From an uncultured archaeon (lineage in GTDB: Archaea > Asgardarchaeota > Lokiarchaeia > Sigyniarchaeales > SOKP01): 64,000 nt of DNA. Positions 3,134 to 22,959 of this stretch are shown here, one piece after another. The stretch covers positions 96,001-160,000 of the forward strand of contig CAZALK010000003.1 of assembly GCA_964486045.1 (NCBI GenBank), given 5' to 3'. The position numbers were made by a program, and so were the translations under genes. The notes under the pieces are model-generated. The model saw only the letters and a list, made by a program, of their open reading frames with translations. It ran no database searches and was not told the DNA's origin. Positions within the stretch are counted from its first letter, which is position 1, and every line of letters begins with the position of its first letter.

Positions 3134-4267
3134 CTATACATTTTTTATCCTCCATTTTCCTTCCTCATAAATTACAGCATCATCTGCTATGATTTTTGAA
3201 CCAGGTACTTTCATATCCTTAAGTATATCCCAATGAACTGCAGATTTATTTGTTCCCCCACATTCTTCAAAACCATTACCTAGAGCAAGGTGTATTGTAC
3301 CACCAATTTTTTCATCAAATAACATGTTTTTGGTAAACTTTGTAATCCCAAAATTCGTACCAATAGCAAATTCTCCAAGTTTATTAGCATTTTCTATCTT
3401 TAATAGTTCTTTTAGAAGAGATTCACCTTTTTCTGCTTTTAAGATAGATACTTCACCTTCTTTAAATTCTAAATATATGTCTTCAATTTCTCTCCCGTAA
3501 TATATCCCAGGATACGTAAATCTTATATGACCATTTGCAGAATCCTCAATAGGGCTCGTAAAAATCTCTCCAACAGGTAAATTACTCTCACCACAAGCAT
3601 TTTCCCATTTTCTCCCCTTTACATTAAATGTTAGATCTGTGTCCTCTCCAATTACCTGGATTTTTTCAATATTATCTAAGTAATCAGTAATCATTTCTTG
3701 CTCTTTTTTCATTTTTCGCCATTCTTCAACTGGATTCTCTTTATGTAAAAATAAGCTTTTAAATACAAAATCCGAATATGAGAAAAGATCCATGTTGGCC
3801 TCCTGAGCATTCGCTTGACTAGGATAAGGAACAATAACCCACTTCATCTCCCCGCTAGCAGCCCGATGATCAAAAATCTCCATTAATTCTACTCGTTCCG
3901 GTGCTGAAGTTAATTTTACCATCTTTTCAGGCTCAATACCACTATATTTACGTGTATTGTAGTCTGCTCGAATTTGAATTAGACGATCAAATTTCTTTAA
4001 CATTGTTTTTTCACCATCATCTACGAATGATAACTGCTCATCAGATGCGTGTTTTAAGAAAAGTTCTCGCATCCCTTCTAATGTTGGAAGTGCCATAAGA
4101 TGAGCACCAGCTCTAACTATCTCAACATTTAATGCTAGAAATAACTCTCTTGCCAAACTGGGCCCTATAAGAGCCACTTGATGCCCTTTCTCTATCTCAA
4201 GTGAATACTTAATTACAATCTTTGCAAGCTTTTCATAATTATTATTGTACATATTTCCACCAATCAC
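3134..4267 (-). CDS. Aminopeptidase, M29 family (AmpT/AmpS-like)
   Basis: NLPxGEIFTSP, LGEFAIG, LFDEKIGGTIHLALG, SAVHWD metal-binding motifs. Confidence 0.92.
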   Translation of the reverse strand: MIGGNMYNNNYEKLAKIVIKYSLEIEKGHQVALIGPSLARELFLALNVEIVRAGAHLMALPTLEGMRELFLKHASDEQLSFVDDGEKTMLKKFDRLIQIRADYNTRKYSGIEPEKMVKLTSAPERVELMEIFDHRAASGEMKWVIVPYPSQANAQEANMDLFSYSDFVFKSLFLHKENPVEEWRKMKKEQEMITDYLDNIEKIQVIGEDTDLTFNVKGRKWENACGESNLPVGEIFTSPIEDSANGHIRFTYPGIYYGREIEDIYLEFKEGEVSILKAEKGESLLKELLKIENANKLGEFAIGTNFGITKFTKNMLFDEKIGGTIHLALGNGFEECGGTNKSAVHWDILKDMKVPGSKIIADDAVIYEEGKWRIKNV

Positions 4268-4297
4268 TTTTGTATTTTTTTTTTTCCTTTTTTATTC

Positions 4298-5218
4298 TTA
4301 TAGGGTGTCTATTACTTCATTTAGTTTTGAAATTACTTCTTCAGGAGTACTTGTGAAATTAAACACTCCTGCATCTAAATCCAAATCACCATCAATCCCT
4401 TCAGCTGCTAATTCATAAATTATATTTTCGGCTTCTTCCTTAGAAATTTCAAGCGCTTGAGATAGTTTTTCAATGGGGAGTGTTTTTTGAAGCTTTATTA
4501 ATCCTTGGATTCGTTTTTTAATCCTCTCTTTTTGAGCCCCATTCTGAGATTTTTCAACCTTAACTTTCTTAGATTGCTTCTTAAATTTACGGTCTAATTC
4601 CCTGCCTAATTCTTCTATCCCCGAATTTTCTACTGCATGTTCTATTTTTGCCCCCATCTTTTCCATTTTTCGTCCCCATTGCTCTATTTTTGCGATGTCA
4701 CCGATATTATTTTTGACAAATTTCATCGATTTTCGAACTAGCTCTGAAACTGAAGCTCCTAAACCATCAGCCCAATCTCTCCATTCTTCACTCATCTCAG
4801 GGTCAACCGAGATATTAATTCTTTTTACTGCTTTTTCCACTTTTTTTCTAACTTTTTTGTCAAATTTTGCTTCATGCCCTTCAATTTTCTTTTTAAGACG
4901 TTGTAGCTTCTTATTTGCCTTTGTGACATGCTCTCTTGCATCATCTCCATGATGCTCTAACTCTCCTTTAATTTCTCCCAGTTCTTTAAGTAAATCATTT
5001 CTTTCTTCAATCAGATCTTCCAAATCGTCCTTTAAGTCTTCTTTAATATCATCAGCTTCTTCATTTAAATCCTCTATTACATCCTGTAAATTATCATGGA
5101 TATCCTCTAATTCATGCTTAAGTTCATCACGAAGGCTATCTATTTTCCATTTTACCTTCCCACCATCATCTTTATTTTCTTCTTTTTCTTTCCTCTCTTC
5201 ATCTTTCGACATACTCAT
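4298..5218 (-). CDS. Coiled-coil protein with central ribbon-helix-helix and C-terminal winged-helix-like domain (putative regulator)
   Basis: Acidic heptad-rich N-terminus; KRINISVDPEMSEEWRDWADGLGASVSELVRKSM fits the CopG/RHH pattern; LPIEKLSQALEISKEEAENIIYELAAEGIDG fits a wHTH; GGAG SD upstream. Confidence 0.65.
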   Translation of the reverse strand: MSMSKDEERKEKEENKDDGGKVKWKIDSLRDELKHELEDIHDNLQDVIEDLNEEADDIKEDLKDDLEDLIEERNDLLKELGEIKGELEHHGDDAREHVTKANKKLQRLKKKIEGHEAKFDKKVRKKVEKAVKRINISVDPEMSEEWRDWADGLGASVSELVRKSMKFVKNNIGDIAKIEQWGRKMEKMGAKIEHAVENSGIEELGRELDRKFKKQSKKVKVEKSQNGAQKERIKKRIQGLIKLQKTLPIEKLSQALEISKEEAENIIYELAAEGIDGDLDLDAGVFNFTSTPEEVISKLNEVIDTL

Positions 5219-5226
5219 TCCTCCTT

Positions 5227-5940
5227 TTACATATCCTCTTTATTTATTTTTCTTGGTAATTTTAAATCTACAGCAGAAATTTGAACAGCCCCATGAGTTA
5301 AAATAGATTTTTCGTCTATTTCTATCTTATCTACATAATAAACTGTTCCCATTACCTCCGTACCTCTACCAATTTTTACGATTCGACCTTTAACATCTTC
5401 TTCAACTAGGGTTCTTATAAGAATGATATTATTATTAGCATTAACGCTTCCATGCACTTTACCAGGATGTTTAAAAACATTTCTACCTCTTAAGGCTCGT
5501 CCTCGACCTATGAACACGCTATTTCCAGTGACGTCTCCATAAATTGTTGTAGATCCCGTAATATCAATAGTGTTTCTTGATAAGAGATCACCTTTAACGA
5601 TAAATGAACCTGAAGATCTAATTCCTTGAAGAGCTTCTACATTGTTTCCTGCTCTTAAGGAACCTGAACTTGAAAATGCACCTTTAACAAAAATTCCCCC
5701 TTCTACTCTAGATGAACCAGACGATGTTGCAATCCCATCACCATGAATAGCTCCCATAAGTCTAAATGACCCTGACGATCTAAGATCTCCATGAACCGTT
5801 AGATCTCCTGATCCCCGAAAAGAACCAGATGATTGAAAATTTTTACACTCAAAATTTCCATCAATTCTGGCCGAACCCGATACGTGCAAATCGTCATCAA
5901 TTTTTCCTGCTGAAAGTCTTCCTGACCCAGAAATTCTCAT
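5227..5940 (-). CDS. Bactofilin-like polymer-forming beta-helix protein
   Basis: About 8 repeats of 17-18 aa with an SSGSxRxxGx core; C-terminal V.G..V.IG.GTEV.G.VYY resembles Bacillus YhbE/YhbF-type proteins; GAGGT SD. Confidence 0.75.
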   Translation of the reverse strand: MRISGSGRLSAGKIDDDLHVSGSARIDGNFECKNFQSSGSFRGSGDLTVHGDLRSSGSFRLMGAIHGDGIATSSGSSRVEGGIFVKGAFSSSGSLRAGNNVEALQGIRSSGSFIVKGDLLSRNTIDITGSTTIYGDVTGNSVFIGRGRALRGRNVFKHPGKVHGSVNANNNIILIRTLVEEDVKGRIVKIGRGTEVMGTVYYVDKIEIDEKSILTHGAVQISAVDLKLPRKINKEDM

Positions 5941-6320: not shown

Positions 6321-6348
6321 TTTTTTAACCTCTTATTTTTTTTTTCAG

Positions 6349-6407
6349 TGTGTTTTTTTATTTTTTTGTTGTGTACTGATCTATAATTAGTGTGTATCAT
6401 ATATAAA
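6349..6407 (-). promoter_or_regulatory. Archaeal TATA box followed by three 21-bp-phased TGTGT(A/T) repeats (putative operator)
   Basis: TTTATATA on the minus strand at 6400-6407; plus-strand TGTGTT at 6349, TGTGTA at 6370 and TGTGTA at 6391. Confidence 0.55.
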
Positions 6408-6738
6408 TGTTTTGATTTGAAAAATGATGTGAAATGCGTTTTGATGGGCGATATTGATTTCTAATACAATTTTAATGAATTTTAGTGTCTGAGAAAAAGG
6501 TGTGGAAAAAGTTTGTGTATTGAATATTAAAAAATAGTTGAGTTTTTTAAAAAGAAGAAAACGGGGCTTGAGAGCACATTTTTTGCGGTGTGTATAGTTG
6601 TATAAAAATATTAACTTCTAGTTAATTAAGAAATATCACAAAAGAGCAAATTTATTTAATATTTGAAAATATCTTTAGAAAATAGGGAAGGGAAATTAAT
6701 TAGAGGATAATTTGGGCTATCATTGGATTTCGCCCTCT

Positions 6739-6760
6739 ATTAAACTCTATAGAGTTTAAT
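6739..6760. repeat. Perfect 22-bp palindrome ATTAAACTCTATAGAGTTTAAT
   Basis: Sequence equals its own reverse complement. Confidence 0.85.
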
Positions 6761-7126
6761 CTCTCCCTGATTATTTTATTTCAGCTCAGATTTCTTTTCC
6801 CTTCTCTTCTTGGAATAAAATACGGATTTTCCCACTATAATACCAGCCTATGCGATTTTTGTATCAATTTGGTTTGTAGATAAAAGAGGATTTTAGCCCT
6901 CTTCTCTCCCTATTCATTTTTTGTCTGTAATCTGATAAATAATTTTCTAATGGAAAGTTTACACAAAGTCTTAGACTTGTTTTAGACTGAATAGTGAAAT
7001 TTATCCTAATCCATTTTGTCTTGATTTTACGAGGTAGATTAAAAATAGCAAAATTAAGAGGCAGTAAATCAGAAGTAGCATTAAGTTAAGAGTCTTATTA
7101 TTTTAAAATTTTTGTTACAAATATTC

Positions 7127-7546
7127 TCATGGGAATTTTTGCGAATTTTGAAACGCTTTTGCTTTCTGTAACAATTTTTTAGCGTTATCATATGTTAAAC
7201 GTCTGAATGCTTTATGAAATGTCAACCAGACGTAATCTTCATGCTCATAACTTATTTTAACATCTTTAGTGTTAGCTTTGATAAGGTAACAATTTACGTA
7301 CTTATGAATCCTCTGACCTTTAAAAGTAAAGGAATATTCGTATTTTTCTTTGAATCCTTTTATAATTATCGCTTCAGTAATACTCGTCTCTTCTTCTAAT
7401 TCCCTTAAAATTGTTTGCTCATCAGATTCATTTTCTTCTATATGACCTTTTACAAATTCCCAATGACCTAAGCCATATTTAAGTAGTAAATATTCATTTT
7501 CATTATATACGATTGCTGCAACTGAAAATTCTTCTTTTAAATTCAT
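7127..7546 (-). CDS. NUDIX hydrolase (Ap4A hydrolase-like)
   Basis: HWEFVKGHIEENESDEQTILRELEEETSI Nudix box; ISYEHEDYVW. Confidence 0.9.
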   Translation of the reverse strand: MNLKEEFSVAAIVYNENEYLLLKYGLGHWEFVKGHIEENESDEQTILRELEEETSITEAIIIKGFKEKYEYSFTFKGQRIHKYVNCYLIKANTKDVKISYEHEDYVWLTFHKAFRRLTYDNAKKLLQKAKAFQNSQKFP

Positions 7547-7671
7547 CTTTACCCAAAATTATTCAGTGATTACAATAGATCATTTTTTAAATCCTTATAT
7601 TTTGAAATAGTTTTCTAAATTAAAATAATATAAGCAATTATTCACATTCAGTATAACTTTTTGATTAAAAA

Positions 7672-8454
7672 TTGATAAAGCATATCAAAGATAAGGAATC
7701 TTTACATAATCGATTTATGGAAGATATTTATTTATTTGCATATCATATTGGGGACCTTGATGATTTCTACTTTTCAGATTGTACATGGTTTGGGTTAGAA
7801 GAAAACGAGCAATTAAAAGAAGTGATCTTATTATATACAGGTTTAAAAGTTCCTACACTCCTAGTATTTGGATCACCCGAGAAAATACCTTCTTTAATCG
7901 AAGGGATAATTGAAAAGCTTCCTGATCAGTTCTATTGTCATTATCAAGAGGATTTTCATAAATATTTCGAGTCAGATTATCAAATGACGTTTTTGGGAGG
8001 CCACCTGAAGATGAAATTTGAAGGAGAATTTGCTAAACTCTCTATTATTGATACAAATGGAACTTTCCAGCTTAACGAAGATAATGAGCCAAATCTTCTT
8101 TCATTATATCAAGCTGCCTATCCTGATGGTTATTTTATACCATACATGTTAAAAACAGGTAAATATTATGGAGTAGAAGCTGAAAAAAAAATAGTATCTA
8201 TTGCAGGAGTTCATGTTTTCTCTTCATTATATAACATAGCTGTTTTGGGAAACATCACTACACATCCTAATTTTCGAGGAAGAGGTTTAGCAAAAAAATG
8301 CATTGTACGATTGTTGGAATCGTTTAATGGAGTAATAGATCATATTGGGTTAAATGTTAAGAAAGATAACCTGATTGCCCTTAAATTATATGAGAAATTA
8401 GGTTTTAAGGTTCATTCTACTTACAAAGAGGCACATTTTGAAAGAATTTCATGA
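7672..8454 (+). CDS. GNAT family N-acetyltransferase
   Basis: NITTHPNFRGRGLA motif A; N..A..LYEKLGF motif B. Confidence 0.88.
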   Translation: MIKHIKDKESLHNRFMEDIYLFAYHIGDLDDFYFSDCTWFGLEENEQLKEVILLYTGLKVPTLLVFGSPEKIPSLIEGIIEKLPDQFYCHYQEDFHKYFESDYQMTFLGGHLKMKFEGEFAKLSIIDTNGTFQLNEDNEPNLLSLYQAAYPDGYFIPYMLKTGKYYGVEAEKKIVSIAGVHVFSSLYNIAVLGNITTHPNFRGRGLAKKCIVRLLESFNGVIDHIGLNVKKDNLIALKLYEKLGFKVHSTYKEAHFERIS

Positions 8455-8681
8455 AAGTATATACAAAATTTTTCTTTCATTTTTCAATTTAGTTTAAATT
8501 CTTGATTTTTTCTTAAAAAATATCTTTTAAAATCTTAAAGAGCTCCTATAATAGGATGTTTATAGATTTAAAAGGTCCAGACAAATCAATAATAAACAAC
8601 ATAAACAAATGAGAGATAAATAATTAAAGGATTATGAGAATATTTTTTAATAACAATTAATACTATTAAAAGTGATTCTAA

Positions 8682-9425: not shown

Positions 9426-10505
9426 TTATTGTACGAAAGTTGCTGCATTTTTCAATGCTTCTTCTGCGTCCTTTATAACTGTTGTAATGATGTCCGATAC
9501 ACTCTCGATTTTATTTATTACTCCGATACTTTGACCCAATAAAACTCCTCCGTTTTCCATATCGCCTTGATAAGCAGCAAAAGCTGCTCTTGCATCTTTT
9601 CTTAATTCTTCGGCAAGGTCTTCCTTTGAAATTGCGGTACGGTGGTCTCCTAATGCATTTTCCTCAGCTATTTTTTCTTCTTTACTTTTAACTAAGCCTT
9701 TTTCAAGAGCATATTTATTCTTCCAATACCTAATCGTTCCTAAGCTTCCCGTCCTTATAATAGTATCTTGAGCTTTAGCTGGTGGTACAACACCTTTATA
9801 ATTTTCATGAAATTCACTGTCTTTAGATGCTATAAATCTTGAACCCATCGCAACTCCCCCAGCACCTAAAGCTAATGCTGCAGCCATACCTGCTCCGGTG
9901 CCATATCCTCCGCACGCGATTTTCGGGACATCTGGATGTTTTTGCTGTACTTGCTGTAATAGAACTAACCCACCAACTTTTTCATAAGATTGGTGACCCC
10001 CACCTTCAAAACCGGTTACAACAAGGCCGTCGCAACCTGCAGCCACGCATTTGTTCGCCAACCAGAGCGCAGGGGCAACATGGAAGTGTTTTATATTCGA
10101 ATTTTCCCTTAGTTTCTGAAAATCCTTGTTTAGAGGCATTCTTGATGCAGAACCCGCACTTGTAAGCGCATATAAACATTGTTCTCGCAATTTTGGGTTT
10201 CCCATAATATGTTTTGAGGTTTCAGAAATTAAATTATCGCAATTAACAGTATTTCTTGAAGTTCTAATATTAAACCCAAAAATCCCACTGGTATGCTCGA
10301 CTACGTAATCAAGATTTTTTTTCATCGCTACTATCGCATCTGGTTCCCTGCCATCCATTGATTGGTTTGCATGAGAGATCATTCCAAGTCCACCCTCTTC
10401 TGAGACCGCAATAGCTAGTTCAGTGGTTCTAAAAGGGCCCATTGCGGCGTTTGCAATTGGATGCTTAATTCCAAACATTTCAGTAATATTTGTTTTTAAT
10501 GTTAT
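9426..10505 (-). CDS. Nitronate monooxygenase/FabK-family flavoprotein
   Basis: GIKHPI..AMG, EGGGH, GG motif, AMGSRF, GQSIG. ORF track starts at 10478; start placed at ATA 10505, 6 nt after a GGTGA SD, which restores KTNITEM. Confidence 0.88.
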   Translation of the reverse strand: MTLKTNITEMFGIKHPIANAAMGPFRTTELAIAVSEEGGLGMISHANQSMDGREPDAIVAMKKNLDYVVEHTSGIFGFNIRTSRNTVNCDNLISETSKHIMGNPKLREQCLYALTSAGSASRMPLNKDFQKLRENSNIKHFHVAPALWLANKCVAAGCDGLVVTGFEGGGHQSYEKVGGLVLLQQVQQKHPDVPKIACGGYGTGAGMAAALALGAGGVAMGSRFIASKDSEFHENYKGVVPPAKAQDTIIRTGSLGTIRYWKNKYALEKGLVKSKEEKIAEENALGDHRTAISKEDLAEELRKDARAAFAAYQGDMENGGVLLGQSIGVINKIESVSDIITTVIKDAEEALKNAATFVQ

Positions 10506-10997: not shown

Positions 10998-11474
10998 TTA
11001 TTTTGTAGAAATCATATCTTTTGGAATTTTAACTGCGATAACTTCTCCTTGAACACATAGTATGCCTTTAGTAAATAATTTTACTTCTACTATTACTTTT
11101 CTCTCCTTAATTTCTTTTACACTCCCAATTAACTCCAGTTCTTGATTAATTGGGGTTAGTTTTATGTAATCGACATGAACAGAGGTGATTACATATCGTA
11201 ATTCAGGTTGTGTGCCCATTTTCCGTCCTTCTGATTTGTAAGCAGCAGCAGTTCCGGTTCCATGACAATCAATTAAAGATGCTAGTAATCCGCCATACAC
11301 ATACCCCGGAAAAGCAGTGTGGTATGGTTTTGGTGTAAATCTGGCAATACTCGTATTTTCATCATCACTCCAATAACTTTTAATTCTCAATCCATTATCA
11401 TTCAATCTTCCACATCCATAACAGTAACTCAGTTGATCTGAATAATAATCTTGAAAGGCTTTTATTTTCACCAC
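10998..11474 (-). CDS. PaaI-family hotdog thioesterase
   Basis: CYGCG..N..GL, PGYVYGGLLASLIDCHG; AGGAG SD. Confidence 0.88.
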   Translation of the reverse strand: MVKIKAFQDYYSDQLSYCYGCGRLNDNGLRIKSYWSDDENTSIARFTPKPYHTAFPGYVYGGLLASLIDCHGTGTAAAYKSEGRKMGTQPELRYVITSVHVDYIKLTPINQELELIGSVKEIKERKVIVEVKLFTKGILCVQGEVIAVKIPKDMISTK

Positions 11475-11979: not shown

Positions 11980-12555
11980 TTGAACTTAGTATTTTCAATA
12001 ATATTTTTTACCGATATTGATAATAATTCTATTGATATACTTTTGGTGGTACACAATAATATTAAGAAAAAACTGGTTTTTCGTATCAATCGCAATAAGA
12101 AATCGAAAAAAAAAAATGTAACCGATTTAGATCGGGGTGAAATAGTAAAAAAATTAAACGGTCGAACTCTTATGGTTTATTTTGTACTTCTAAATAAAAA
12201 ATTCATTGGTGTGCGCGAGTTACAGCGGCATTTAGAACTTTCTAGCCCAAGTGTTGCAAAGTACCATCTTGAGAAATTAGAAAATTTAAATCTAGTTGAG
12301 AATAGAAATGGCGTATATCATCTTAGAAGAAAGGCGGATTTGCCATTATTAACTTCATGGGTTTTGATAGGAAAACAGCTTATCCCAAGGGTTATTTTTG
12401 CGGCCTTGTTTTTTACTTTTCTTTTTATTGGTTATTTATTCTTTGTTTATACCTATTGGAATAAAGATAGCTTATTTGTTATATTGTTTGGAATAGCAAT
12501 CATGATTTTTGTATGGATGGACGTGATCTTACAATTCAAACATAAACCGATATAG
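11980..12555 (+). CDS. Membrane-anchored winged-helix transcription regulator (start uncertain, probably near 12100)
   Basis: GRTLMVYFVLL...GVRELQRHLELSSPSVAKYHLEKLENLNLV wHTH followed by two TM helices. Confidence 0.8.
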   Translation: MNLVFSIIFFTDIDNNSIDILLVVHNNIKKKLVFRINRNKKSKKKNVTDLDRGEIVKKLNGRTLMVYFVLLNKKFIGVRELQRHLELSSPSVAKYHLEKLENLNLVENRNGVYHLRRKADLPLLTSWVLIGKQLIPRVIFAALFFTFLFIGYLFFVYTYWNKDSLFVILFGIAIMIFVWMDVILQFKHKPI

Positions 12556-12684
12556 TGTAAAACATAACCTTCATTAATATCTCAGCGTAATTTCTGTAAA
12601 ATCATCCACTGTTCTAAACTGTAGTATAATAAATTCTGGTGATATAATGTAATATGTAAATGAAATTGAATTAAGAGAAAAAAA

Positions 12685-15600
12685 ATGAATAGAAGCAGAA
12701 AAGGCAGTATCTTCTTATTATTGATATGTATTCAATTTTTTTTGATGGGTTTTAGCGTTATGGGAACCAGTTCCTATAATGGAAATGAGCAGGAAATTCC
12801 TCAAGGACAAAAAATTAAAAGTGACACCATGTCACATTCATCTCCTTACTATTTTCCTACTAATAAATCATCCCCATTGATGACAGACGTATCAGAGGGG
12901 TTAGATTCTGATAAAAATCCCAAACTTGCTAATTATTATTACAATAATGATTATGTCTTAACACTCAATTTAGATAAGTCAGTTCTTACAATTGGTGAAA
13001 CTCTTACATTAAATTTAGGTTTAACTTGTAATCTATCTGCGTCACCAGGAAAAGTAATATCAGTAGAAATCTATGAAGGATTTTACCGCAATTATTATTA
13101 CTACTATCCTAATTATTATGAGTCTGGAACTCCAATATATACAGAAGATCTTACAACTAATGCAGACGGTCAAGCTTCAATGACGTTCTCATCCACTACA
13201 TCTGAAGGGATGTATACGGTTTACGCCTATACAGAGGATAGTCGAATTTATAAAGATTTTACAATTGGTGAAGCTGGTATATTCTACAAAGGACCAAGAT
13301 TTTATAAACCCAACCAACATTACAGCGCTGCTGTTCATGTTGTTAATCTCACTGACTTTTCAGGTATGCCCTTAGCGTTTTTTAATTATTCAATTTCTTA
13401 TTATCTATATTCTTCTTCGAGTTGGAATATTTTAGCAGCAGACCAAGTACAGACAGATGATACGGGGTATGCGGTTTTAAATACTGACATCCCTTTGGAT
13501 GCGGATAATTATAATGTCCTTAGATTAACCATATCCACTCTTGATGGTAAAGCAGAATATCAAGCCTTTTTATATGAGAGTTGGGATTATTACTATTATT
13601 GTATGTGGGGAGGTCAGCAAAAAACTATTCAGGAAAAATTTCAGTATGTAGTAACAGCAGATAAAACCATTTACAATCCTGGTGATATTGTTTTACTAAG
13701 AGCATTAGTAATGCAATACTCATTTATGAACGAAACAAAAGTTGCGTTGCAATATACCCCAATTTCCTTAATAATCTATAATCCGGATGAATTTGCTGTA
13801 TTTTGGACAGATATTGCTACTGATGAGTATGGAATATTGTCTTTTAATTTTCCGTTAGATGAAGATTGTGAGCTTGGAAATTATGGATTCGAATTTAGTT
13901 ATTCAGGTGAAACATATAGGTACAATATAAAGGTTGATTATTACGTTAAACCAGTTTTCAGAGTGGAAATAGATACAAATGAGAAGGATTTTTATTCTGC
14001 TAATGAAAAATTATTTGAAGGTTTTGTTTTTGCATCTTATTACTTTGGTCAACCGGTAGTAGGGGCATCTGTAGTACTCACAATTCAAAACCATTGGGGG
14101 GAGATTAAAAAAGTAATAGAGGGATACACGAATGGTGAAGGCAGATTTTATTTTTCAACAAATTTACAACTTATCCCAGATCTAGATTATTCTTTTAACG
14201 TACAAGCTGAAGTAACAGATATTTACGGAAGGAGTGCATCCAGTGAAAAAACCTACACCCGTATAAAAGAATTATATGCTTATGGGTACTTAACTGATTG
14301 GGCACCTCATCCTGATGATACTTTAGAATACTATTTCTACGCATTTCAGTACGTTATGTCTGATTGGTATTGGATGTATAATCCTTTAGCAAATATATCA
14401 GTCAAAATTGAAATCTTAGGAATCGCAAACTATCCCTTCCCTTTAGTGTTCAATTTTAGACACTTGATTGCAACATATTCTAAAACAACTAACATATTTG
14501 GATCAGGGAAACTGGAATTTAACTTGCCATTAGCTATTATTAAGATTTACAATCTTTTTGAAATTAGGCTAACAATTAGTTTAGAGGATGGACGAACTTC
14601 AACCTCCTCATATTATTATAGATATAAGAAATACAGTTTGGATATTAATATTATAAATTCTACTTTAAATCCAGGTAATATCCTTGAATTTGAAGTCACT
14701 TTTAAAGATGTTCTGACTGGTTATTCTAGCACAGGTGAAGGTAAAATCTATATTTATGACGCTAATCATCAATTGATAGGTCAAGTTAGTGATTTTATCT
14801 CTGGGAGTAAAACTTATAATTTTTTAATACCAGATTCGTCTCCTGAAGGGAGGTATTATATTTATTCTTATGTTTATTCCCGCCCTAATCAATATTATGG
14901 TGGATTTAATTATCATTCCGCACATGAATCCTTTATTGTGGGAAGTCTTCAATCTATATCAATTGTTTCCAATTTTAGTAATTCTGGAACTTATTATGAT
15001 AAAATTATTGTTCAGATTGGTGACGTTATAGAGATTAATGGTACATCAAACGTAACAGCCAATATTCAGCATTACATGGAAATCTATAAGCGCGGATTAC
15101 TTTTTTCGTTTCCGTTAGAAGTTATTAGCAATAATTTCTCGCATATTTTGTCAGTTCTTCCAGAATACGCTCCTGATTTTACGATAATTATATATACAAT
15201 CTCTGATTCAGGAAAGCTTTATGAAACTATCCTAACGGTTCATGTTGAGTATGCTTATAGCTTAAATCTGTCAACAGATAAAGAAATTTATGAACCTGGA
15301 GATCTAGTAACTCTTACGATAACACCATCGGAAAATACTACTTCAGTTGTTGCACTTTCATTTATTGACAGTGCTGTACTTGATGTAGAACCCGAAGATG
15401 ACTCTGAATTAGCATATTTTACAAAACGTCCCTATTCAGCATATATTAGCTCAGGAAGCTCATGGGGATTTGGATTCAGTGCTGAAAGTTATTGGTGGTT
15501 TGGTTATGGAAGGCCTTCAGGAGGAATTCGTTATTTGGAAGTCAACGATCAAGTATTCTTTTTAGATAGCTACTATGCAGGATCATTAGAATCACGGACT

Positions 15601-18600
15601 GACTTCAAATCTGATAGTTTTTCGTTCGATGAATTAGTCTCTAATTTTGAAACAGAGATTAGAAAGAATATATCGGAGTCAGCAAATTGGATGCCTAATT
15701 TAATAATATCAAAACCCACAGAAATTACCTTTAAACTACCCGATAATATCGGAGAATGGACTATTAGAGCTGTGTGTAATAATATTTTTAAGGACTCAAA
15801 TGCCATTATTCTATGGGGAGATGTGGTAACTAAACAAATTAAAACCTTTTTGCCATTTTTTGTTGAATTCGAGATACCTGAACCAGTTTTTCAAGATGAT
15901 ATCCTAAGCGTAAAAGGTTATATCTACAATTATATTGGAACCGATGTTTATGCTACAGTTGCGATTAGTGCCCCTGAGCTTATTATATTAAATAAAGACG
16001 TTCAAGAATTATATATCCCTGATGGATTTGTTTCTGAAATAGAGTTTTCTGTATATTGTATAAAACCTTACTCCCAGAATATCACTCTTTTAGTTGTTAC
16101 AGAATCTGGGGGAGTAAAGTATTCAGATGCAAAGCAGTTGACTACTTATATCAAACCCAATGGTATAGAAATCATTAATAGAACAATTGGTTTTTTAAAT
16201 GCAACTGATGGGTCACTCCTCCTAAATTATACAATTGATCCATTAGCAATATATCATAGAGAGACATTAGCTTTATATACAGACCTGATGGACATTTCTA
16301 TTGATAGTTGGCAATCTCTTATCGGGTACCCCTATGGATGTATAGAGCAGACAATATCTAAGACAATGCCAACTGCTTTAATATTTAATTATTTAAATCA
16401 AACTGGGCAACTCACTAATAATTTAGAGCAAGAAATGACTCTAATGATATTAGAAGGGCTCAGTCGAATTTATAACTTTCAGCATAATGATGGTGGTTGG
16501 GGCTGGTGGCGAGATGATGCGTCTAAAATTATTATGACCTCTATTGTCATATCCGCATTAAACCAAATTGAAAAAGTTGGATTTCAAATTAATCAATATA
16601 TCTTGAATAAAGGAATTGATTATTTAATTGCCCATCAACAACCGAATGGTGCCTGGGATTTTCAGGAATATTCTTCAAATACCTTGGAAGCTACGGCTTT
16701 TATTCTAAAAGCACTCATAAGTTCCAATAACATAACCACCGAAATGAACACAGCTATTAATAACGCAATTGGAAAATATACAAATTTATGGAATGCTGGA
16801 GATATGCAGAGTTCTTATGGAGCATCTCTTTTTTACATCGCAACTAAAGCTAATATTTATGAAAATATCACTCTAAATAATGTTTTAATCCAATTTATTA
16901 AAGATAATTTTGTAGCTGAGGACAATACAATATTTTGGGAAAGCGATATAAATAATATATGGTATTGGAGAAAATTAGGGAATAAAGTAGAAATTACATC
17001 ATATGCCACATGGGCTCTTGCAATGGATGATTATATTAGCAATTACGCTCTTATCCAAAAAGCTGTAAGGTTTTTGTTAGATCAACGTAATCGCTGGGGA
17101 TGGGGATCAACAGCTGATACTTCAGCTGCGATTGCAGCATTAACCGCAATTAATGGGGTTATGATTGGAGGTGGATTTATTGATTTCAACGGAACTATTT
17201 CGGTAGTAGTTAATAATTACACACCACCTCAACATTTTTTAAATTTTACAGAATCTAATAATTATCCTGACGAAATTCTGTTATACCTTGATAATCTTGA
17301 AACTGAAATAATTAATACAATAAATATCACACTTGAGGGTTTTGGTAATATTTGCTATATTTTTGAAAGCACACAAATATTACGATCAGATCCAAAAATA
17401 GAGATTCCGGAGATTATTGAAGTTTCTCAGAATGAACAATTCTATTTTTATTTAGAATTCTCTGAAATTGATGAAAGAATGCCACTCGTAGATACTACAA
17501 TATCATTACTTAATATCCCTCAAAATTTCTACGATTCAGAAGCAAATTATACGATTTTTAACCCACTCATTCTTAATGGGAGTAAAGTGTATTTTCCTTT
17601 AATAGCACCAGACATAGAAGGTGATTATTTCTTAGAAGGAGTTTCAATATTAGGTTATATTCAATACAATGATACTTCAACTAATTCTTCACGATTACAA
17701 CCTTTTCAGAGAACAGTAGGACCTACAATTATACGTGTTGGAGCAAAATCGCAATCCTTATTTCCAATGATCAATTCAATTAATGCTTCAGGATCAGGAC
17801 AACAGATTTTATCTCTAATAAAAGAAATTTCTAAACAGAAATATCTAATTTCAGGAGAATTAATAAATATAACGATAAAAATAACTAATAATGGAGATGT
17901 GCGCCAATTTTATGTTGTAGATGATGAACAGCCTACAGGCACAGTTTTCATACCTGATTCTGTTGAAATTTCAGGCAATTATTCTGACTCAGAAGTTACT
18001 CATGAAATATATTCATCTGGAATTCATTTCTTTTTCCCTATTTTAACCAAAGGAGCTACTGAAATTACATATCAAATTCAGGTAAATAATATTAAAAATG
18101 CATATTCTGGTCAATGCAACCTTTGGGGCATGTATGATGATACGTATATCTCTGCAAAATCTATCGTATTGGAAAATATTCCAAGAAAATATTTTACAAG
18201 CAATTTGGTTTATCAAGATTTATTACTACCATCAATTTTAAATGCTAGTGTACTGCAAAGTTTTAAAACTCCGAATATTGAGCTAAGAGTTAATGTCCAA
18301 GCAATGGATAATAACATTATACACAAAATTCGGGTCATCTTTTCACAAGATTCTGGTTGGAGGGCTCAAACTCTTTATTCAATGAGAGATCAAGATGATT
18401 TTTCAATTAACATTACTGATCTTAAAAACATTAATTCTATTGTAACACTGTTTATAGAAGTCTCTGATATTTATGGTAACACAGCCACTTTGATTTTACT
18501 ACCAATAAGGATAACCATTTATGAGCTCATTCCATATCTAATAGTTGGTGCAATTGTGGGCTTTTCCCTCGGAATCGCAAGTATATCTTCAGTTCTTTAT

Positions 18601-18699
18601 AAAAAATTTGAAAAAAAGAAGCAAAGAAAAAAAAATAACCTACTTGAGAAACCAGAAGAAAAATTTTCATTTGAATCTTCTAAAAATGAGAATTTTTGA
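12685..18699 (+). CDS. Alpha-2-macroglobulin family thioester-containing protein, secreted and C-terminally membrane-anchored
   Basis: Signal peptide; MG motifs (DKTIYNPGD, TDKEIYEPGD); LPDNIGEWTIRA; YPYGCIEQ thioester (CIEQ at 16339-16350); QHNDGGWGWW; WGSTADT; C-terminal TM and Lys-rich tail. Confidence 0.93.
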   Translation: MNRSRKGSIFLLLICIQFFLMGFSVMGTSSYNGNEQEIPQGQKIKSDTMSHSSPYYFPTNKSSPLMTDVSEGLDSDKNPKLANYYYNNDYVLTLNLDKSVLTIGETLTLNLGLTCNLSASPGKVISVEIYEGFYRNYYYYYPNYYESGTPIYTEDLTTNADGQASMTFSSTTSEGMYTVYAYTEDSRIYKDFTIGEAGIFYKGPRFYKPNQHYSAAVHVVNLTDFSGMPLAFFNYSISYYLYSSSSWNILAADQVQTDDTGYAVLNTDIPLDADNYNVLRLTISTLDGKAEYQAFLYESWDYYYYCMWGGQQKTIQEKFQYVVTADKTIYNPGDIVLLRALVMQYSFMNETKVALQYTPISLIIYNPDEFAVFWTDIATDEYGILSFNFPLDEDCELGNYGFEFSYSGETYRYNIKVDYYVKPVFRVEIDTNEKDFYSANEKLFEGFVFASYYFGQPVVGASVVLTIQNHWGEIKKVIEGYTNGEGRFYFSTNLQLIPDLDYSFNVQAEVTDIYGRSASSEKTYTRIKELYAYGYLTDWAPHPDDTLEYYFYAFQYVMSDWYWMYNPLANISVKIEILGIANYPFPLVFNFRHLIATYSKTTNIFGSGKLEFNLPLAIIKIYNLFEIRLTISLEDGRTSTSSYYYRYKKYSLDINIINSTLNPGNILEFEVTFKDVLTGYSSTGEGKIYIYDANHQLIGQVSDFISGSKTYNFLIPDSSPEGRYYIYSYVYSRPNQYYGGFNYHSAHESFIVGSLQSISIVSNFSNSGTYYDKIIVQIGDVIEINGTSNVTANIQHYMEIYKRGLLFSFPLEVISNNFSHILSVLPEYAPDFTIIIYTISDSGKLYETILTVHVEYAYSLNLSTDKEIYEPGDLVTLTITPSENTTSVVALSFIDSAVLDVEPEDDSELAYFTKRPYSAYISSGSSWGFGFSAESYWWFGYGRPSGGIRYLEVNDQVFFLDSYYAGSLESRTDFKSDSFSFDELVSNFETEIRKNISESANWMPNLIISKPTEITFKLPDNIGEWTIRAVCNNIFKDSNAIILWGDVVTKQIKTFLPFFVEFEIPEPVFQDDILSVKGYIYNYIGTDVYATVAISAPELIILNKDVQELYIPDGFVSEIEFSVYCIKPYSQNITLLVVTESGGVKYSDAKQLTTYIKPNGIEIINRTIGFLNATDGSLLLNYTIDPLAIYHRETLALYTDLMDISIDSWQSLIGYPYGCIEQTISKTMPTALIFNYLNQTGQLTNNLEQEMTLMILEGLSRIYNFQHNDGGWGWWRDDASKIIMTSIVISALNQIEKVGFQINQYILNKGIDYLIAHQQPNGAWDFQEYSSNTLEATAFILKALISSNNITTEMNTAINNAIGKYTNLWNAGDMQSSYGASLFYIATKANIYENITLNNVLIQFIKDNFVAEDNTIFWESDINNIWYWRKLGNKVEITSYATWALAMDDYISNYALIQKAVRFLLDQRNRWGWGSTADTSAAIAALTAINGVMIGGGFIDFNGTISVVVNNYTPPQHFLNFTESNNYPDEILLYLDNLETEIINTINITLEGFGNICYIFESTQILRSDPKIEIPEIIEVSQNEQFYFYLEFSEIDERMPLVDTTISLLNIPQNFYDSEANYTIFNPLILNGSKVYFPLIAPDIEGDYFLEGVSILGYIQYNDTSTNSSRLQPFQRTVGPTIIRVGAKSQSLFPMINSINASGSGQQILSLIKEISKQKYLISGELINITIKITNNGDVRQFYVVDDEQPTGTVFIPDSVEISGNYSDSEVTHEIYSSGIHFFFPILTKGATEITYQIQVNNIKNAYSGQCNLWGMYDDTYISAKSIVLENIPRKYFTSNLVYQDLLLPSILNASVLQSFKTPNIELRVNVQAMDNNIIHKIRVIFSQDSGWRAQTLYSMRDQDDFSINITDLKNINSIVTLFIEVSDIYGNTATLILLPIRITIYELIPYLIVGAIVGFSLGIASISSVLYKKFEKKKQRKKNNLLEKPEEKFSFESSKNENF

Positions 18700-19416: not shown

Positions 19417-20460
19417 GTGATTTATAAATTGATTGAAACAAATATAACTAAAATGTTTGGGATAAAACACCCAATCTTCAGTGCTCCAATGGGACCTTTT
19501 TACACTCGTGACTTGGCTTTAGCGGTATGTGAAGCAGGTGGTTTGGGTGTGTTGTCTAATGTTAACATAGTAGGGACAGATCCTGTAAAAGAACACATAG
19601 CTAGCATAGAATACATGATTGAACACACTGATAAACCATTCGGGCTTAATTTTCTTACTTCTCGGAATAATCGAGGAGTCAAAGAAATGGTAACGGATGT
19701 ACCTAAAATGGTTATGAACAATCCAAAGATGAGAGAACAGTGTGTGTACTGGTTAACTTCAGCTGGTTCTTCAAAAATTTTACCTTCTTCTAAAAATTGG
19801 CAAGAATTAAAGGAAAAATCGGAAGCAAAACACTTTCATGTAGCCCCCGCTTTATGGTTAGCACAAAAATGTGTGGATGCCCAAGTAGATGGAATTGTAG
19901 CCACGGGTACTGAAGGAGGAGGCCATCAATCTTATGAAAAAGTCTCTACCATGGTTTTATTACAACAACTTAATGAAGCTTTTCCAGATTTACCCAAGAT
20001 AGCATGCGGAGGTTTTGCTACTGGAGAAGGTTTAGCTGCCGCCTTATCACTTGGAGCAGGAGCTATAGCTATGGGATCGCGATTTATTGCTTCAAAACAA
20101 TCGGAATTCCATGAAGCCTACAAAGGGTTAATCCCTCAAGGTAAACCACAAGATACAGGGCTTTTCACTGGATCATTCGGTCCTATTCGCCTATTCAAAA
20201 ACAAGTATGCTTTAAGCCACCCCGCACCTCAAACTAAAGAAGATATGATAGCCTATGAAAAATCGTTAACACCTGAGGTATTAGCACGTGATGCAGGCGC
20301 TTATGATAGAGTTTATAATGGGGATGTTGAAAATGGAGCAGTTCTGCTAGGCCAATCAATCGGTATTATTAATAGTATTGACGATGTGAGAGACATTATT
20401 GATCGGGTAGTGAAAGGGGCAGTTGCTTCAATAAAACGTAACCAATCTAGGCTAAATTAG
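19417..20460 (+). CDS. Nitronate monooxygenase/FabK-family flavoprotein
   Basis: EGGGHQSYEKV, AMGSRF, GQSIG; close paralog of 9426..10505; true start probably TTG 19429 after GGTGA. Confidence 0.9.
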   Translation: MIYKLIETNITKMFGIKHPIFSAPMGPFYTRDLALAVCEAGGLGVLSNVNIVGTDPVKEHIASIEYMIEHTDKPFGLNFLTSRNNRGVKEMVTDVPKMVMNNPKMREQCVYWLTSAGSSKILPSSKNWQELKEKSEAKHFHVAPALWLAQKCVDAQVDGIVATGTEGGGHQSYEKVSTMVLLQQLNEAFPDLPKIACGGFATGEGLAAALSLGAGAIAMGSRFIASKQSEFHEAYKGLIPQGKPQDTGLFTGSFGPIRLFKNKYALSHPAPQTKEDMIAYEKSLTPEVLARDAGAYDRVYNGDVENGAVLLGQSIGIINSIDDVRDIIDRVVKGAVASIKRNQSRLN

Positions 20461-20509: not shown

Positions 20510-20944
20510 TCAAAAAGTAAATCCTTTTAATTTTAAAATTTCTTGTTTTAAATCGGTAGGAATGACCGCTTTTTTTTTTTCCTGATAATTATACCATACT
20601 ATATGAGCCCCCCCTTTAGCGGCTATTCGATTTAATTTTTTACTCATTATAGAATGGTGTATTATTATTTTAGATTCCTCAACACCTTCAATTTTTGCAC
20701 CAACATAAATAATGTCTGGGTATGTTAATGGTGCTTTATAGATGCAATCTTGATACGATAAAATAGGCGCGATAAGGGCTGTTGTAGGTTCTTTATAAAC
20801 ATTTAATAATTCAAATAATGCTATCCGTGAACTTTCGAAATATCTATAATATACTGTATTATTAACATGCCCCCTGGCATCCATATCTCCCCATCGGACG
20901 GGCATCTCCAATATTATAGGGAAATCTTTTAAAATTTCGGTCAT
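20510..20944 (-). CDS. Acyl-CoA thioesterase (4HBT/YbgC family)
   Basis: VRWGDMDARGHVNNTVYYRYFESSR. Confidence 0.92.
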   Translation of the reverse strand: MTEILKDFPIILEMPVRWGDMDARGHVNNTVYYRYFESSRIALFELLNVYKEPTTALIAPILSYQDCIYKAPLTYPDIIYVGAKIEGVEESKIIIHHSIMSKKLNRIAAKGGAHIVWYNYQEKKKAVIPTDLKQEILKLKGFTF

Positions 20945-21020: not shown

Positions 21021-21992
21021 TTATAAAATTGTTTTTAACCTATTGATAACATCTTCAGCTTCTTTCATTATACGATCTAATAACTCTTTAGCGGTAGGAA
21101 TATCCTTAACTAAACCTACACCTTGACCGCATGAGACAATACCTACGTCCAAATCGCCTTCTTTGTACATTTTTCTTGCGTTTTCACCCGAAGCTACTTT
21201 TATTATTTCTTGGAGTGGTGCTTTTTGAGATTCTAATTCAAGGATTTTTTCAGCAGCTTTATTCTTCCAGAATCTATGAGAGTTCCGAATACTTCTCATA
21301 GCGATTGTCGTGTCCGTTTCCGTTGCTTGAACAAAAGCTTGTTTTAGGTTATCATGCAAAGGACATTCCTTAGTCGCCATCATTCGAGTTCCCATTATCA
21401 CTCCTTCAGCACCAAGTGCAAGAACTGCAGCAATACCCCGACCATCGGTAATTCCCCCCCCAGCGATTACTGGAACATCTATAGCATCTACAACACTAGG
21501 TGTCATCACAAGAGTACCAATGTCTAGAGTTCCTGTTGCTCCACCATTTTCATATCCAACTACTGTAATAATATCAGCACCCAAAGAAGCACCTGTTTTA
21601 GCATATCTGACACCTGCGCACTTATGAATCCAAGTAGCGCCACCGTCCTTAAATTTAGGGACCAAATCTGCGGGCGCTTTATGACCACTTGTTTCGATTA
21701 TTTTCACACCTTCATCAAGAGTCGCGCCAACATATAGTTCCAATTTCTCTTGTGGCATCATGGCAGGAAAAAGGTTTATGTTTACAGCAAAAGGTTTATC
21801 AGTTAGTGATTGTGTTTTTTTAATTGCTTCCCGTAACTCATCAGGTGTTTGGTAATTTGCACTTGCCAATACTGCGCAAGCACCAGCATTACTTACCGCA
21901 GCAACAAATTCAGGATTGGAGATATTAGCCATCGTCCCAGAAATTATAGGATATTTACAACCTAACATTTCAGTTACTTTCGTTTTAATCAT
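21021..21992 (-). CDS. Nitronate monooxygenase/FabK-family flavoprotein
   Basis: KTKVTEMLGCKYPII, VIAGGGITDGRG, MGTR, CGQGVG. Confidence 0.9.
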   Translation of the reverse strand: MIKTKVTEMLGCKYPIISGTMANISNPEFVAAVSNAGACAVLASANYQTPDELREAIKKTQSLTDKPFAVNINLFPAMMPQEKLELYVGATLDEGVKIIETSGHKAPADLVPKFKDGGATWIHKCAGVRYAKTGASLGADIITVVGYENGGATGTLDIGTLVMTPSVVDAIDVPVIAGGGITDGRGIAAVLALGAEGVIMGTRMMATKECPLHDNLKQAFVQATETDTTIAMRSIRNSHRFWKNKAAEKILELESQKAPLQEIIKVASGENARKMYKEGDLDVGIVSCGQGVGLVKDIPTAKELLDRIMKEAEDVINRLKTIL

Positions 21993-22125: not shown

Positions 22126-22959
22126 ATGGATTACAAATTAATAATTTTTGATGTTTCTGGTCAGATAGCAACTATTACTCTCAACAGACCAGAGCGTCTT
22201 AATGCTTGGACTTATGAGATGAGCATTGAGATATGGGATGCGTTAATGAAAGTAGAAAATGATCCTAATTTAAGAGTGACAATAATCACTGGTGCTGGGA
22301 GAGGATTTTGTGCTGGAGCAGATTTATCGAGTGGTGGTACAACATTTGATGGATCTAATCGCCCTCGTGAGGAAGATGAAAGAAGGAGACGCGAGGGAAG
22401 CCTAATTAGGCGATATTTCTCATTAAAAAAGCCTGTCATTGTGGCAATAAACGGACCTGTTGTTGGAGTAGGAGTAACATTCATATTACCATTCGATATT
22501 CGAATCGCCGCTGAGAGTGCTCGTATAGGAATAGTATTTAATCGACGGGGTGTCATTCCAGAGATTGCCTGTCCCTGGATTTTACCTAGAATCATTGGAA
22601 TTAGTAAAGCTGCTGAGTTAATGTATACTGGTAGAATTGTAAATGCTAAAGAAGCTCTGGAATTTGGACTAGTAAGTCGAGTAGTACCTGACGATAAACT
22701 TATGGATACTGCACGAGAGATTGCTGAAGAAATATTGTTAAGTGCTCCTGTAAGTGTTGCTCTAACAAAGAGCATGTTATATCAATTCCTTACTGAAACC
22801 GATATTGATAAAGCAGAAAGGATAAATCATCAGTATTTTGGGTGGACTGGTACACAACCTGATGCACGCGAAGGAGTAGTCTCTTTCCTTCAAAAAAGAA
22901 AACCTGAATGGAAATTGAAAGTACCTGGAGATTTACCAGATTTTTTCCCGTTAGAATGA
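22126..22959 (+). CDS. Enoyl-CoA hydratase/isomerase (crotonase) family
   Basis: TLNRPERLNA, GRGFCAGADL, KPVIVAING, DIRIAA; GGAGGT SD. Confidence 0.92.
   Translation: MDYKLIIFDVSGQIATITLNRPERLNAWTYEMSIEIWDALMKVENDPNLRVTIITGAGRGFCAGADLSSGGTTFDGSNRPREEDERRRREGSLIRRYFSLKKPVIVAINGPVVGVGVTFILPFDIRIAAESARIGIVFNRRGVIPEIACPWILPRIIGISKAAELMYTGRIVNAKEALEFGLVSRVVPDDKLMDTAREIAEEILLSAPVSVALTKSMLYQFLTETDIDKAERINHQYFGWTGTQPDAREGVVSFLQKRKPEWKLKVPGDLPDFFPLE

Follow-up and report, generated by a model that had tools for sequence, protein, structure and literature searches.

The stretch of DNA analysed here, referred to below as the window, comprises 64,000 nucleotides from an uncultured archaeon of the Lokiarchaeia (GenBank assembly GCA_964486045.1, contig CAZALK010000003.1, positions 96,001 to 160,000 of the forward strand). 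Two co-oriented open reading frames (ORFs) on its plus strand, at 11980-12555 and 12685-18699 with a spacing of 129 bp, are the subject of this study. The second encodes a protein of 2004 amino acids (aa) of the alpha-2-macroglobulin/thioester-containing protein (A2M/TEP) family, and the first a small protein that combines a predicted winged helix-turn-helix (wHTH) with two transmembrane (TM) helices. An initial annotation, based on the nucleotide sequence and its ORFs, had described the same two ORFs and the same spacing, and had placed them in a probable Asgard archaeon. This placement was right: the host is Lokiarchaeial, it belongs to the same order as Promethearchaeum syntrophicum MK-D1, Lokiarchaeum ossiferum B35 and Harpocratesius repetitus (all with complete genomes), and the A2M protein has its closest relatives in entries labelled Promethearchaeota/Lokiarchaeota. 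The Loki's Castle metagenome contains a partial protein with 84% identity to the window A2M. The host assembly measures 5.18 Mb in 45 contigs and contains a single gene with a thioester domain (TED). In the Lokiarchaeia the two genes form a conserved unit, with a promoter element that is specific to this locus.

The large protein (12685-18699, plus strand; recognized by ORF, Pfam, AlphaFold2 (AF2) and Foldseek) is, judged by its sequence, a genuine member of the A2M/TEP superfamily in which every prerequisite for a thioester is present. The Pfam matches given here exceed the curated cut-offs unless they are called weak. They comprise the macroglobulin (MG) domains MG2 (aa 322-416, E 1e-16) and MG3 (aa 420-493, E 7.9e-6), which together cover aa 322-493 (13648-14163), the A2M bait-region domain A2M_BRD (aa 775-900, 15007-15384, E 1.3e-11), the A2M or MG7 domain (aa 1005-1092, 15697-15960, E 2e-8) and TED_complement (aa 1199-1487, E 2.8e-31). 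The latter lies within a thioester domain predicted to form a helical toroid (aa 1199-1492, 16279-17160; AF2 helices at aa 1201-1492). The GCIEQ thioester motif was located exactly by the initial annotation, at 16336-16350, and corresponds to residues 1218-1222 with C1219 and Q1222. In 41 aligned sequences of two Asgard clades the surrounding GYPYGC[IVLM]EQT is invariant, including the C, E and Q. The best sequence matches in the PDB are CD109 (E 4.5e-31) and A2M (E 1.3e-27). Residues 320-493 align to residues 112-279 of CD109, and the query is colinear with MG2-MG3 of both CD109 and C3, although about 200 more residues precede the MG2-equivalent domain than in either of these proteins. The receptor domain PF07677 (A2M_recep), which CD109 entries carry, was not detected by Pfam in the window A2M at E-values up to 0.1. 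NCBIfam gave no match above cut-off, and PADLOC gave none for the A2M protein. The whole protein contains only 9 Cys residues.

Both ends of the A2M protein are hydrophobic. A signal-like segment with a basic n-region opens the protein (12685-12768; hydrophobic at aa 5-30, from hydrophobicity and alignment). A hydrophobic segment at aa 1943-1972 contains the C-terminal TM helix (aa ~1945-1972, 18517-18600), which is conserved in both Asgard clades, and a Lys-rich, presumably cytoplasmic tail with the stop codon follows (18601-18699). Every aligned sequence ends in the same way, with a hydrophobic helix and then basic residues. The sequence thus fits a type-I membrane protein with a C-terminal TM anchor, as the initial annotation had proposed. 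That annotation was equally correct in finding no lipobox: the alignment contains no conserved L-x-[GAS]-C, and Cys15 is not kept among the orthologues. The many N-x-S/T sequons that it mentioned number 34, a modest excess over the 21.7 +/- 4.1 found in shuffled sequences. In most Lokiarchaeial orthologues the Lys-rich stretch is followed, at the end of the tail, by a conserved acidic motif resembling (V/I)SF(L/I)D(E/D)SEE, which has diverged in the window protein (KFSFESSKNENF). That this motif is conserved suggests that it binds a partner in the cytoplasm or acts as a sorting signal.

AF2 was used to model aa 745-1944, with a mean predicted local distance difference test score (pLDDT) of 77 and a pTM of 0.64. 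The predicted order is that of beta-domains, a low-confidence loop (aa 898-977), MG7, a beta-domain (aa 1106-1198), the helical TED (aa 1201-1492), a further beta-domain (aa 1500-1593) and three more beta-sandwich domains up to the TM helix. The best Foldseek matches against the PDB were native Xenopus A2M (7s63; E 8.8e-36, TMq 0.46), A2ML1, CD109, C5 and TEP1. Native conformers scored a TMq of about 0.45, whereas protease- or methylamine-activated forms scored about 0.26, so that the predicted fold fits the native, spring-loaded state of A2M, A2ML1, CD109 and TEP1 better than the activated one. The MG and TED domains that the initial annotation had proposed to verify were recovered by Pfam. 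A CUB domain, also on its list, has no Pfam match, and its presence is suggested solely by two modelled beta-domains on either side of the TED (aa 1106-1198 and 1500-1593), and by a Foldseek alignment to native A2M that is colinear over 1199 columns. The four beta-sandwich domains predicted after the TED (17182-18513; AF2 secondary structure and pLDDT) can be described as the second half of a CUB-like domain (aa 1500-1593), an MG8-like domain (aa 1601-1685), a DUF11/bMG10-like domain (aa 1709-1815, with weak Pfam similarity at aa 1709-1801) and a last Ig-like domain (aa 1821-1943). Four giant proteins of 4156-6303 aa (P0094, P0102, P0133 and P0146) match the sequence profile built on aa 745-1830 only in its DUF11/bMG10-like domain, 23-39 times each, which indicates that this type of stalk domain is used elsewhere as a repeat module.

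A loop that resembles a bait region was delimited at aa 898-982 (15376-15630) on the basis of low pLDDT, lowest conservation and length variation. The pLDDT is below 50 for aa 898-977, and in the 41-sequence alignment aa 931-990 form the least conserved internal stretch (0.43-0.51, compared with 0.82-0.83 in the flanks), which also varies in length. The aromatic/Gly/Ser-rich segment that had originally been assigned to the bait position (15450-15660, aa ~923-992) overlaps both of these stretches. The two halves of the loop differ: the first is conserved and rich in aromatic, Gly and Ser residues, and the second (aa ~948-982) is hypervariable.

The small gene starts further downstream than was annotated initially. 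Its maximal ORF begins at 11980, but seven genomes of the genus share the TTG at 12043 (at the equivalent positions in loci L008-L013), the called gene in the related locus L005 begins at the equivalent TTG, and no ATG was found ahead of the conserved core. Within the genus the DNA at 11980-12042 is itself conserved as nucleotide sequence (TCAATAATATTTTTTAC..ATTGATAATAA), in the manner of a promoter, and probably represents non-coding promoter DNA of the small gene. Since the TTG is shared and the DNA before it behaves in this way, the protein most likely has 170 aa and is encoded by 12043-12555. The description as a co-oriented wHTH protein with two TM helices stands.

In 170-aa numbering, the small protein opens with a Lys-rich N-terminus, which is followed by a winged helix (aa ~31-94) and two long helices (aa 101-137 and 142-166). 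AF2 (pLDDT 73) predicts the wHTH topology a1-a2-b-a3-a4-wing, and the long helices are joined by a 4-residue turn. The core motif of the family is G(R/T)TL.VYF.LL..(8)GVRELQR.L.LSSPSVA.YHL.KL, and the motif of its recognition helix, LSSPSVAKYHLEKL, resembles that of DNA-binding ArsR/MarR regulators. In line with this, the best Foldseek matches are all ArsR/SmtB or MarR regulators (CadC 3f72, AntR 6uvu, SmtB 1r22, CzrA 1r1u and NolR 4omz; E ~1e-2, probability ~1), which agree with aa ~31-94 in fold and in recognition-helix motif. The Pfam families TrmB, HTH_20 and HTH_5 are matched below cut-off in 11-13 of the 22 family members. A resemblance to Csa3-type wHTH proteins in PADLOC (E 1.8e-5) was read as generic wHTH similarity. 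Unlike in the ArsR/SmtB regulators, with their sensing sites for metals or ligands (alpha3N CxC; alpha5 His/Asp/Glu), neither a conserved Cys nor a Cys/His pattern of metal ligands is found in the small protein, whose only invariant His lies in the recognition helix. The TM hairpin occupies the alpha5 position and replaces the C-terminal dimerisation helix. The protein is therefore best described, on the strength of these models, as an ArsR/MarR-like winged helix carrying a two-helix membrane hairpin. Such tethering recalls the ToxR/CadC-like regulators of bacteria and ArnR of Sulfolobus, to which no homology was found. The loop predicted outside the membrane counts only ~4-8 residues, so that the small protein cannot by itself sense extracellular events; it would have to read a cue from the membrane or the cytoplasm, or from another protein. 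The proposal in the initial annotation that it senses envelope damage is for this reason unsupported.

Linkage of the two genes was studied in 154 genomes of the host's order. An A2M orthologue is present in 21 of these: in 9 of 53 genomes of the window's genus, in none of 42 of the sister genus, and in 8 of 14 of the family that contains the cultured strains. The initial annotation had proposed to examine synteny. In all 16 genomes in which the 5' side is on the contig, including P. syntrophicum and L. ossiferum, the A2M gene is preceded by a co-oriented orthologue of the small gene, and the small gene is also present at every full-length locus of the Loki clade that was retrieved separately. 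The gap between the genes is 123-130 bp in 10 of 14 loci, the window included, and 215-256 bp in three. In two genomes of one genus (G131 and G132) the two genes are ~1 kb apart, with an AIM24-family gene of opposite orientation inserted between them (L007 4067-4780, minus strand). One genome of the window's genus (G178:C425:11944-14410) carries an intact small gene beside an A2M copy that covers no more of the query than aa 1-402, 460-582 and 1769-2003, all within ~2.5 kb, and that looks internally deleted, decayed or misassembled. Across the loci the small protein is 59-72% identical where the A2M protein is 45-65% identical. The linkage was seen only on the Lokiarchaeial side: no homologue of the small gene was found within 4 kb at 16 Heimdall/Hodarchaeales loci or at three loci of a Thermoplasmata clade.

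The small protein belongs to a larger family. In a phylum-wide search paralogues were detected in 224 of 400 genomes, often in several copies and in many contexts without an A2M gene. The contexts of eight sampled paralogues varied; several were located beside genes for membrane or secreted proteins, and one in a cluster with an S8 subtilase. Within one family of the phylum, paralogues directly follow the gene for a conserved protein of ~631-637 aa (L083 8412-10307, L085 2093-3988 and L087 4362-6275), which has one N-terminal and several C-terminal TM helices and no Pfam match. This is apparently a different conserved pair built on the same family of small proteins. Near the pair in L085, positions 6346-8622 encode a secreted S8 subtilase with Ig domains.

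The intergenic DNA between the small gene and the A2M gene contains a conserved element, which was found by aligning the intergenic regions of 12 loci from two families. Within otherwise diverged DNA these share the block (G)TGTTCTAAAC(T/C)(T/G)TAG(T/C)ATAA. In the window it reads CTGTTCTAAACTGTAGTATAATAA (12609-12632), a TGTTCTAAAC box that abuts a TATA-like TAGTATAA. All 14 loci have an element of the form TGTTCTAAAC-N-TAGTATAA ~70 nt ahead of the A2M start, and the GTTCTA core begins 69-75 nt before the ATG. The heptamer TGTTCTA is common to at least 12 of the 14 loci; shuffled sequences never share more than a 5-mer. Most loci have a second TGTTCTA-like box 20-21 nt further upstream, which is a clear TGTTCTA in several relatives and degenerate in the window (TTTCTGTA, 12590-12597). 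The pattern GTTCTAAAC[TC][TG]TAG occurs only once in the 5.18-Mb genome, so that the element is not a general promoter word. At the loci with the AIM24 insertion (L019 and L020) it stays beside the A2M gene, and an extra, inverted copy (TTTAGAACAC) is found upstream. The layout fits a separate A2M promoter, with TAGTATAA as TATA-like element and a leader of ~25-30 nt. The binding site of a factor would then abut or overlap the transcription factor B recognition element (BRE). In the aligned loci no TGTTCTA box was seen to precede the small gene, and autoregulation through the same site is thus not suggested.

The A2M protein has about 55 near-full-length relatives of ~2000 aa, which are 39-84% identical to it, and a second group of ~1950-2010 aa, 28-31% identical, derives from Heimdallarchaeota/Hodarchaeales assemblies. 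The Asgard members all measure ~1950-2130 aa and share the C-terminal TM anchor. A profile of aa 745-1830 matched 15270 library proteins at E-values up to 0.001. About 25 Asgard-type representatives scored above 680 bits; the next scores were ~415 bits, with the nearest non-Asgard proteins below 420, and two of the next-best proteins came from Thermoplasmata and Altiarchaeota, respectively. Trees were constructed on the MG7-CUB-TED core with FastTree (93 rows) and with IQ-TREE under LG+C20 (48 rows). Escherichia coli YfhM was left out of the core alignment because only 130 of its residues aligned to the Asgard profile. CD109 is the sole eukaryotic representative, as a search with fish CD109 returned only CD109 orthologues. 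Both trees contain a single Asgard clade (support 100) with two deep subclades, the Lokiarchaeia (support 100) and the Heimdall/Hodarchaeales. The family forms a deep Asgard-specific clade and is not nested in a recent bacterial one; such nesting was a possibility that the initial annotation had allowed for.

The position of CD109 bears on a possible link to the origin of eukaryotic TEPs, at which the initial annotation had hinted. In both trees vertebrate CD109 is the sister of proteins from the Sedimentisphaerales (Planctomycetota) with support 100, and this pair lies inside a prokaryotic clade. The clade holding CD109 is sister to the Asgard clade in the IQ-TREE analysis, with a weak Shimodaira-Hasegawa-like approximate likelihood ratio (SH-aLRT) value of 91. 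CD109 is 29% identical to the planctomycete proteins over ~1330 residues, as against 22.5% over 772 residues to the window protein. An exclusive clade of Asgard proteins and CD109 was rejected in an approximately unbiased (AU) test (delta lnL 100, p-AU 1e-10). This grouping was tested after the tree had been seen, although the question had been posed beforehand. The sequence data therefore do not make the Asgard A2M a direct forerunner of the animal TEP and complement-type proteins. The planctomycete relatives of CD109 are ~1440-1465 aa long (Sedimentisphaerales metagenome-assembled genomes, L063 and L068; match at 4001-5431), and their sisterhood to it represents a candidate gene transfer between bacteria and animals, in either direction.

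The genes that flank the pair in the window are metabolic. They include three paralogous NMO-type genes (nitronate monooxygenase/enoyl-reductase-like; 9426-10478 on the minus strand, 19417-20460 on the plus strand and 21021-21992 on the minus strand), two hotdog-fold thioesterases and an enoyl-CoA hydratase (10998-11474, 20510-20944 and 22126-22959), and a CMD-family gene. The NMO, thioesterase and hydratase genes constitute a fatty-acid-type cluster that is interrupted by the A2M pair, and in the related locus L005 an NMO gene and a 4HBT_2 gene are likewise located downstream. No pbpC-like gene is found among the neighbours of the pair in the window, as the initial annotation had stated.

Homologues of A2M in archaea have been described before. 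Makarova et al. 2021 (PMC8416519) listed 27 proteins in 24 genomes, mainly of Halobacteria and Methanomicrobia, which share with the Asgard protein MG/Ig domains, a TED, an intact CxEQ and usually a signal peptide. Their supplementary phyletic table includes two such proteins in Heimdallarchaeota LC_3 and none in Lokiarchaeum GC14_75; the main text contains no Asgard term, and the passages covered do not mention a C-terminal TM anchor, a wHTH partner with two TM helices or a promoter element. Some haloarchaeal loci in that work include an HTH regulator (arCOG02808), which is set apart from the 170-aa, hairpin-anchored protein described here by its length of ~270 aa. Full-text literature searches for macroglobulin combined with Asgard or Lokiarchaeota, in a corpus that leaves most subscription journals outside, retrieved no description of the family. 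What is new here is the strict pairing with its promoter element, the corrected start of the small gene, and a Heimdall/Hodarchaeales clade in which the small gene is lacking nearby.

Among the characterized proteins, CD109 (8s3o, 9fx2/9fx3), which gave the best PDB sequence match, and the monomeric A2ML1 (7q1y) are among the top structural matches. CD109 is, like the Asgard protein, a thioester protein tethered to the cell surface. It is held by a glycosylphosphatidylinositol anchor, whereas the Asgard protein has a TM helix and a cytoplasmic tail. The Asgard protein differs from it further in the additional N-terminal residues, in the extra C-terminal beta-domains and in the undetected PF07677. 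E. coli ECAM/YfhM (4ziq, 5a42) and Salmonella SaA2M (4u48) are membrane-tethered, monomeric thioester A2Ms of prokaryotes that have been proposed to trap proteases at the envelope, and the fold of the Salmonella protein matches the Asgard model with a TMq of 0.44. The bacterial type-1 A2Ms, like the Asgard protein, have more MG domains than the animal proteins. They are N-terminal lipoproteins according to their PDB molecule names, in contrast to the C-terminally anchored Asgard protein, and yfhM adjoins pbpC in E. coli K-12, which served as a control, unlike the Asgard locus. The sequence similarity of the enterobacterial A2Ms to the Asgard protein is weak (E ~1e-10) and covers only part of the TED.

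Taken together, we consider it probable, at about 0.6, that the A2M protein is a tethered protease trap of the cell surface and that the small protein is a dedicated transcription factor at its promoter. The large protein would sit on the outside of the single membrane of the archaeon, where a foreign protease may cut the exposed bait loop. A2M would then rearrange and uncover its Cys-Gln thioester, which would react with a nucleophile on the protease, typically a lysine. Owing to the C-terminal anchor the trapped protease would be held covalently at the surface of the cell itself, and trapping would thereby shield the proteins and protrusions on the surface of these archaea. The small protein most likely acts at the TGTTCTAAAC box, with its second copy ~20 nt upstream and the TATA-like element abutting it. 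Protease trapping is the most economical mechanism by analogy, since it has been proposed for bacterial ECAM and shown for the animal proteins A2M, A2ML1 and CD109. Of the anti-protease module that had been annotated initially, the two-gene unit is thus borne out by conservation, and its function is suggested by homology, by the invariant thioester and by the partly hypervariable, disordered bait-like loop.

Several observations weigh against this interpretation. The conserved, aromatic-rich first half of the loop is unlike a classical bait and could serve a different purpose. The A2M locus has no linked protease gene, the flanking metabolic genes are not conserved across related loci, and the A2M gene itself is distributed patchily in the order. 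The A2M protein does not need the small protein, given that the Heimdall/Hodarchaeales clade has no small gene nearby. Finally, the wHTH assignment is made from sub-threshold Pfam scores and from Foldseek E-values of ~1e-2, and another factor may bind the box, or the box may belong to a BRE/TATA that is unusually well conserved.

In C3, C4 and TEP1, all of them among the structural matches, the A2M fold and its thioester act in opsonisation. The Asgard protein might by analogy function in tagging or adhesion, its anchored thioester, once activated, coupling the cell covalently to a syntrophic partner, a competitor, a virus particle, or a substrate of mineral or organic nature, although we regard this as unlikely. 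Any covalent product of the tethered protein would stay attached to its own cell, and the TED would be held off the membrane by a stalk made of the three extra beta-domains. The gene is moreover carried by the cultured P. syntrophicum and L. ossiferum, both of which live in syntrophy. However, the hallmark of protease traps is a bait-site loop that is disordered and hypervariable in one half, and the closest sequence matches, CD109 and A2M, are protease inhibitors. In addition, the consensus shows no conserved His in the short stretch that follows the conserved NGAW, where the His that lets C3 and C4B react with hydroxyl groups would be expected.

A second interpretation, to which we give a similarly low probability, concerns the small protein. 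It may be a membrane partner of A2M, such as a subunit for assembly, retention or signalling, that contacts the TM helix or the acidic tail, while the box is bound by another factor. The better conservation of the small protein relative to A2M would agree with such a role, as would its Lys-rich N-terminus together with the conserved acidic motif at the end of the A2M tail in relatives, the lack of a recognizable sensor domain, and a wHTH that is sub-threshold by sequence. Yet its fold and its motif LSSPSVAKYHLEKL resemble those of DNA-binding regulators, a conserved, locus-specific box lies exactly where an archaeal regulator would bind, and paralogues in more than half of the genomes searched in the phylum are found in many contexts without A2M.

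The protease trap and the regulator could also be connected more closely, a rather speculative extension that we hold to be somewhat less likely still. The pair would then constitute the sensor-effector loop of a surface "innate immunity": cleavage of the bait and the ensuing rearrangement would be relayed via the TM helix or the acidic tail to the small protein, and would change transcription from the TGTTCTAAAC promoter such that spent traps are replaced. As the Asgard clade is the sister, with weak support, of the clade that holds CD109, this design could stand near the root of the lineage that later gave rise to the animal TEPs. A recent import of the A2M gene from bacteria, without a particular history in archaea and with the pairing as a local accident, is highly improbable, for in spite of the wide occurrence of A2M-family genes in bacteria (15270 library matches) and the patchy presence in the order (21 of 154 genomes), it is already contradicted by the trees, with one Asgard clade at support 100 and two deep subclades of shared length and anchor, by the gap in profile scores (below 420 bits outside and above 680 inside the clade), and by a pairing and a promoter element that two families of the order have kept.

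Thioester proteins of the A2M/complement type are central to the innate immunity of animals and protect the envelope in some bacteria. The present analysis documents a deep, Asgard-specific branch of this superfamily with an architecture of its own, in which a TM helix anchors the C-terminus, stalk domains are added and the tail is cytoplasmic. In the Lokiarchaeia it comes with a strictly linked gene for a predicted membrane-tethered winged-helix protein and with a locus-specific promoter element. The result limits the attractive story in which an Asgard protein is the direct ancestor of the animal TEPs. Since the pair is present in both cultured Asgard archaea that were sampled, P. syntrophicum MK-D1 and L. 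ossiferum, the predictions of surface display, thioester reactivity, protease capture and operator binding are directly testable, and they bear on the way in which cells with exposed membranes and long protrusions may defend or use their surface.

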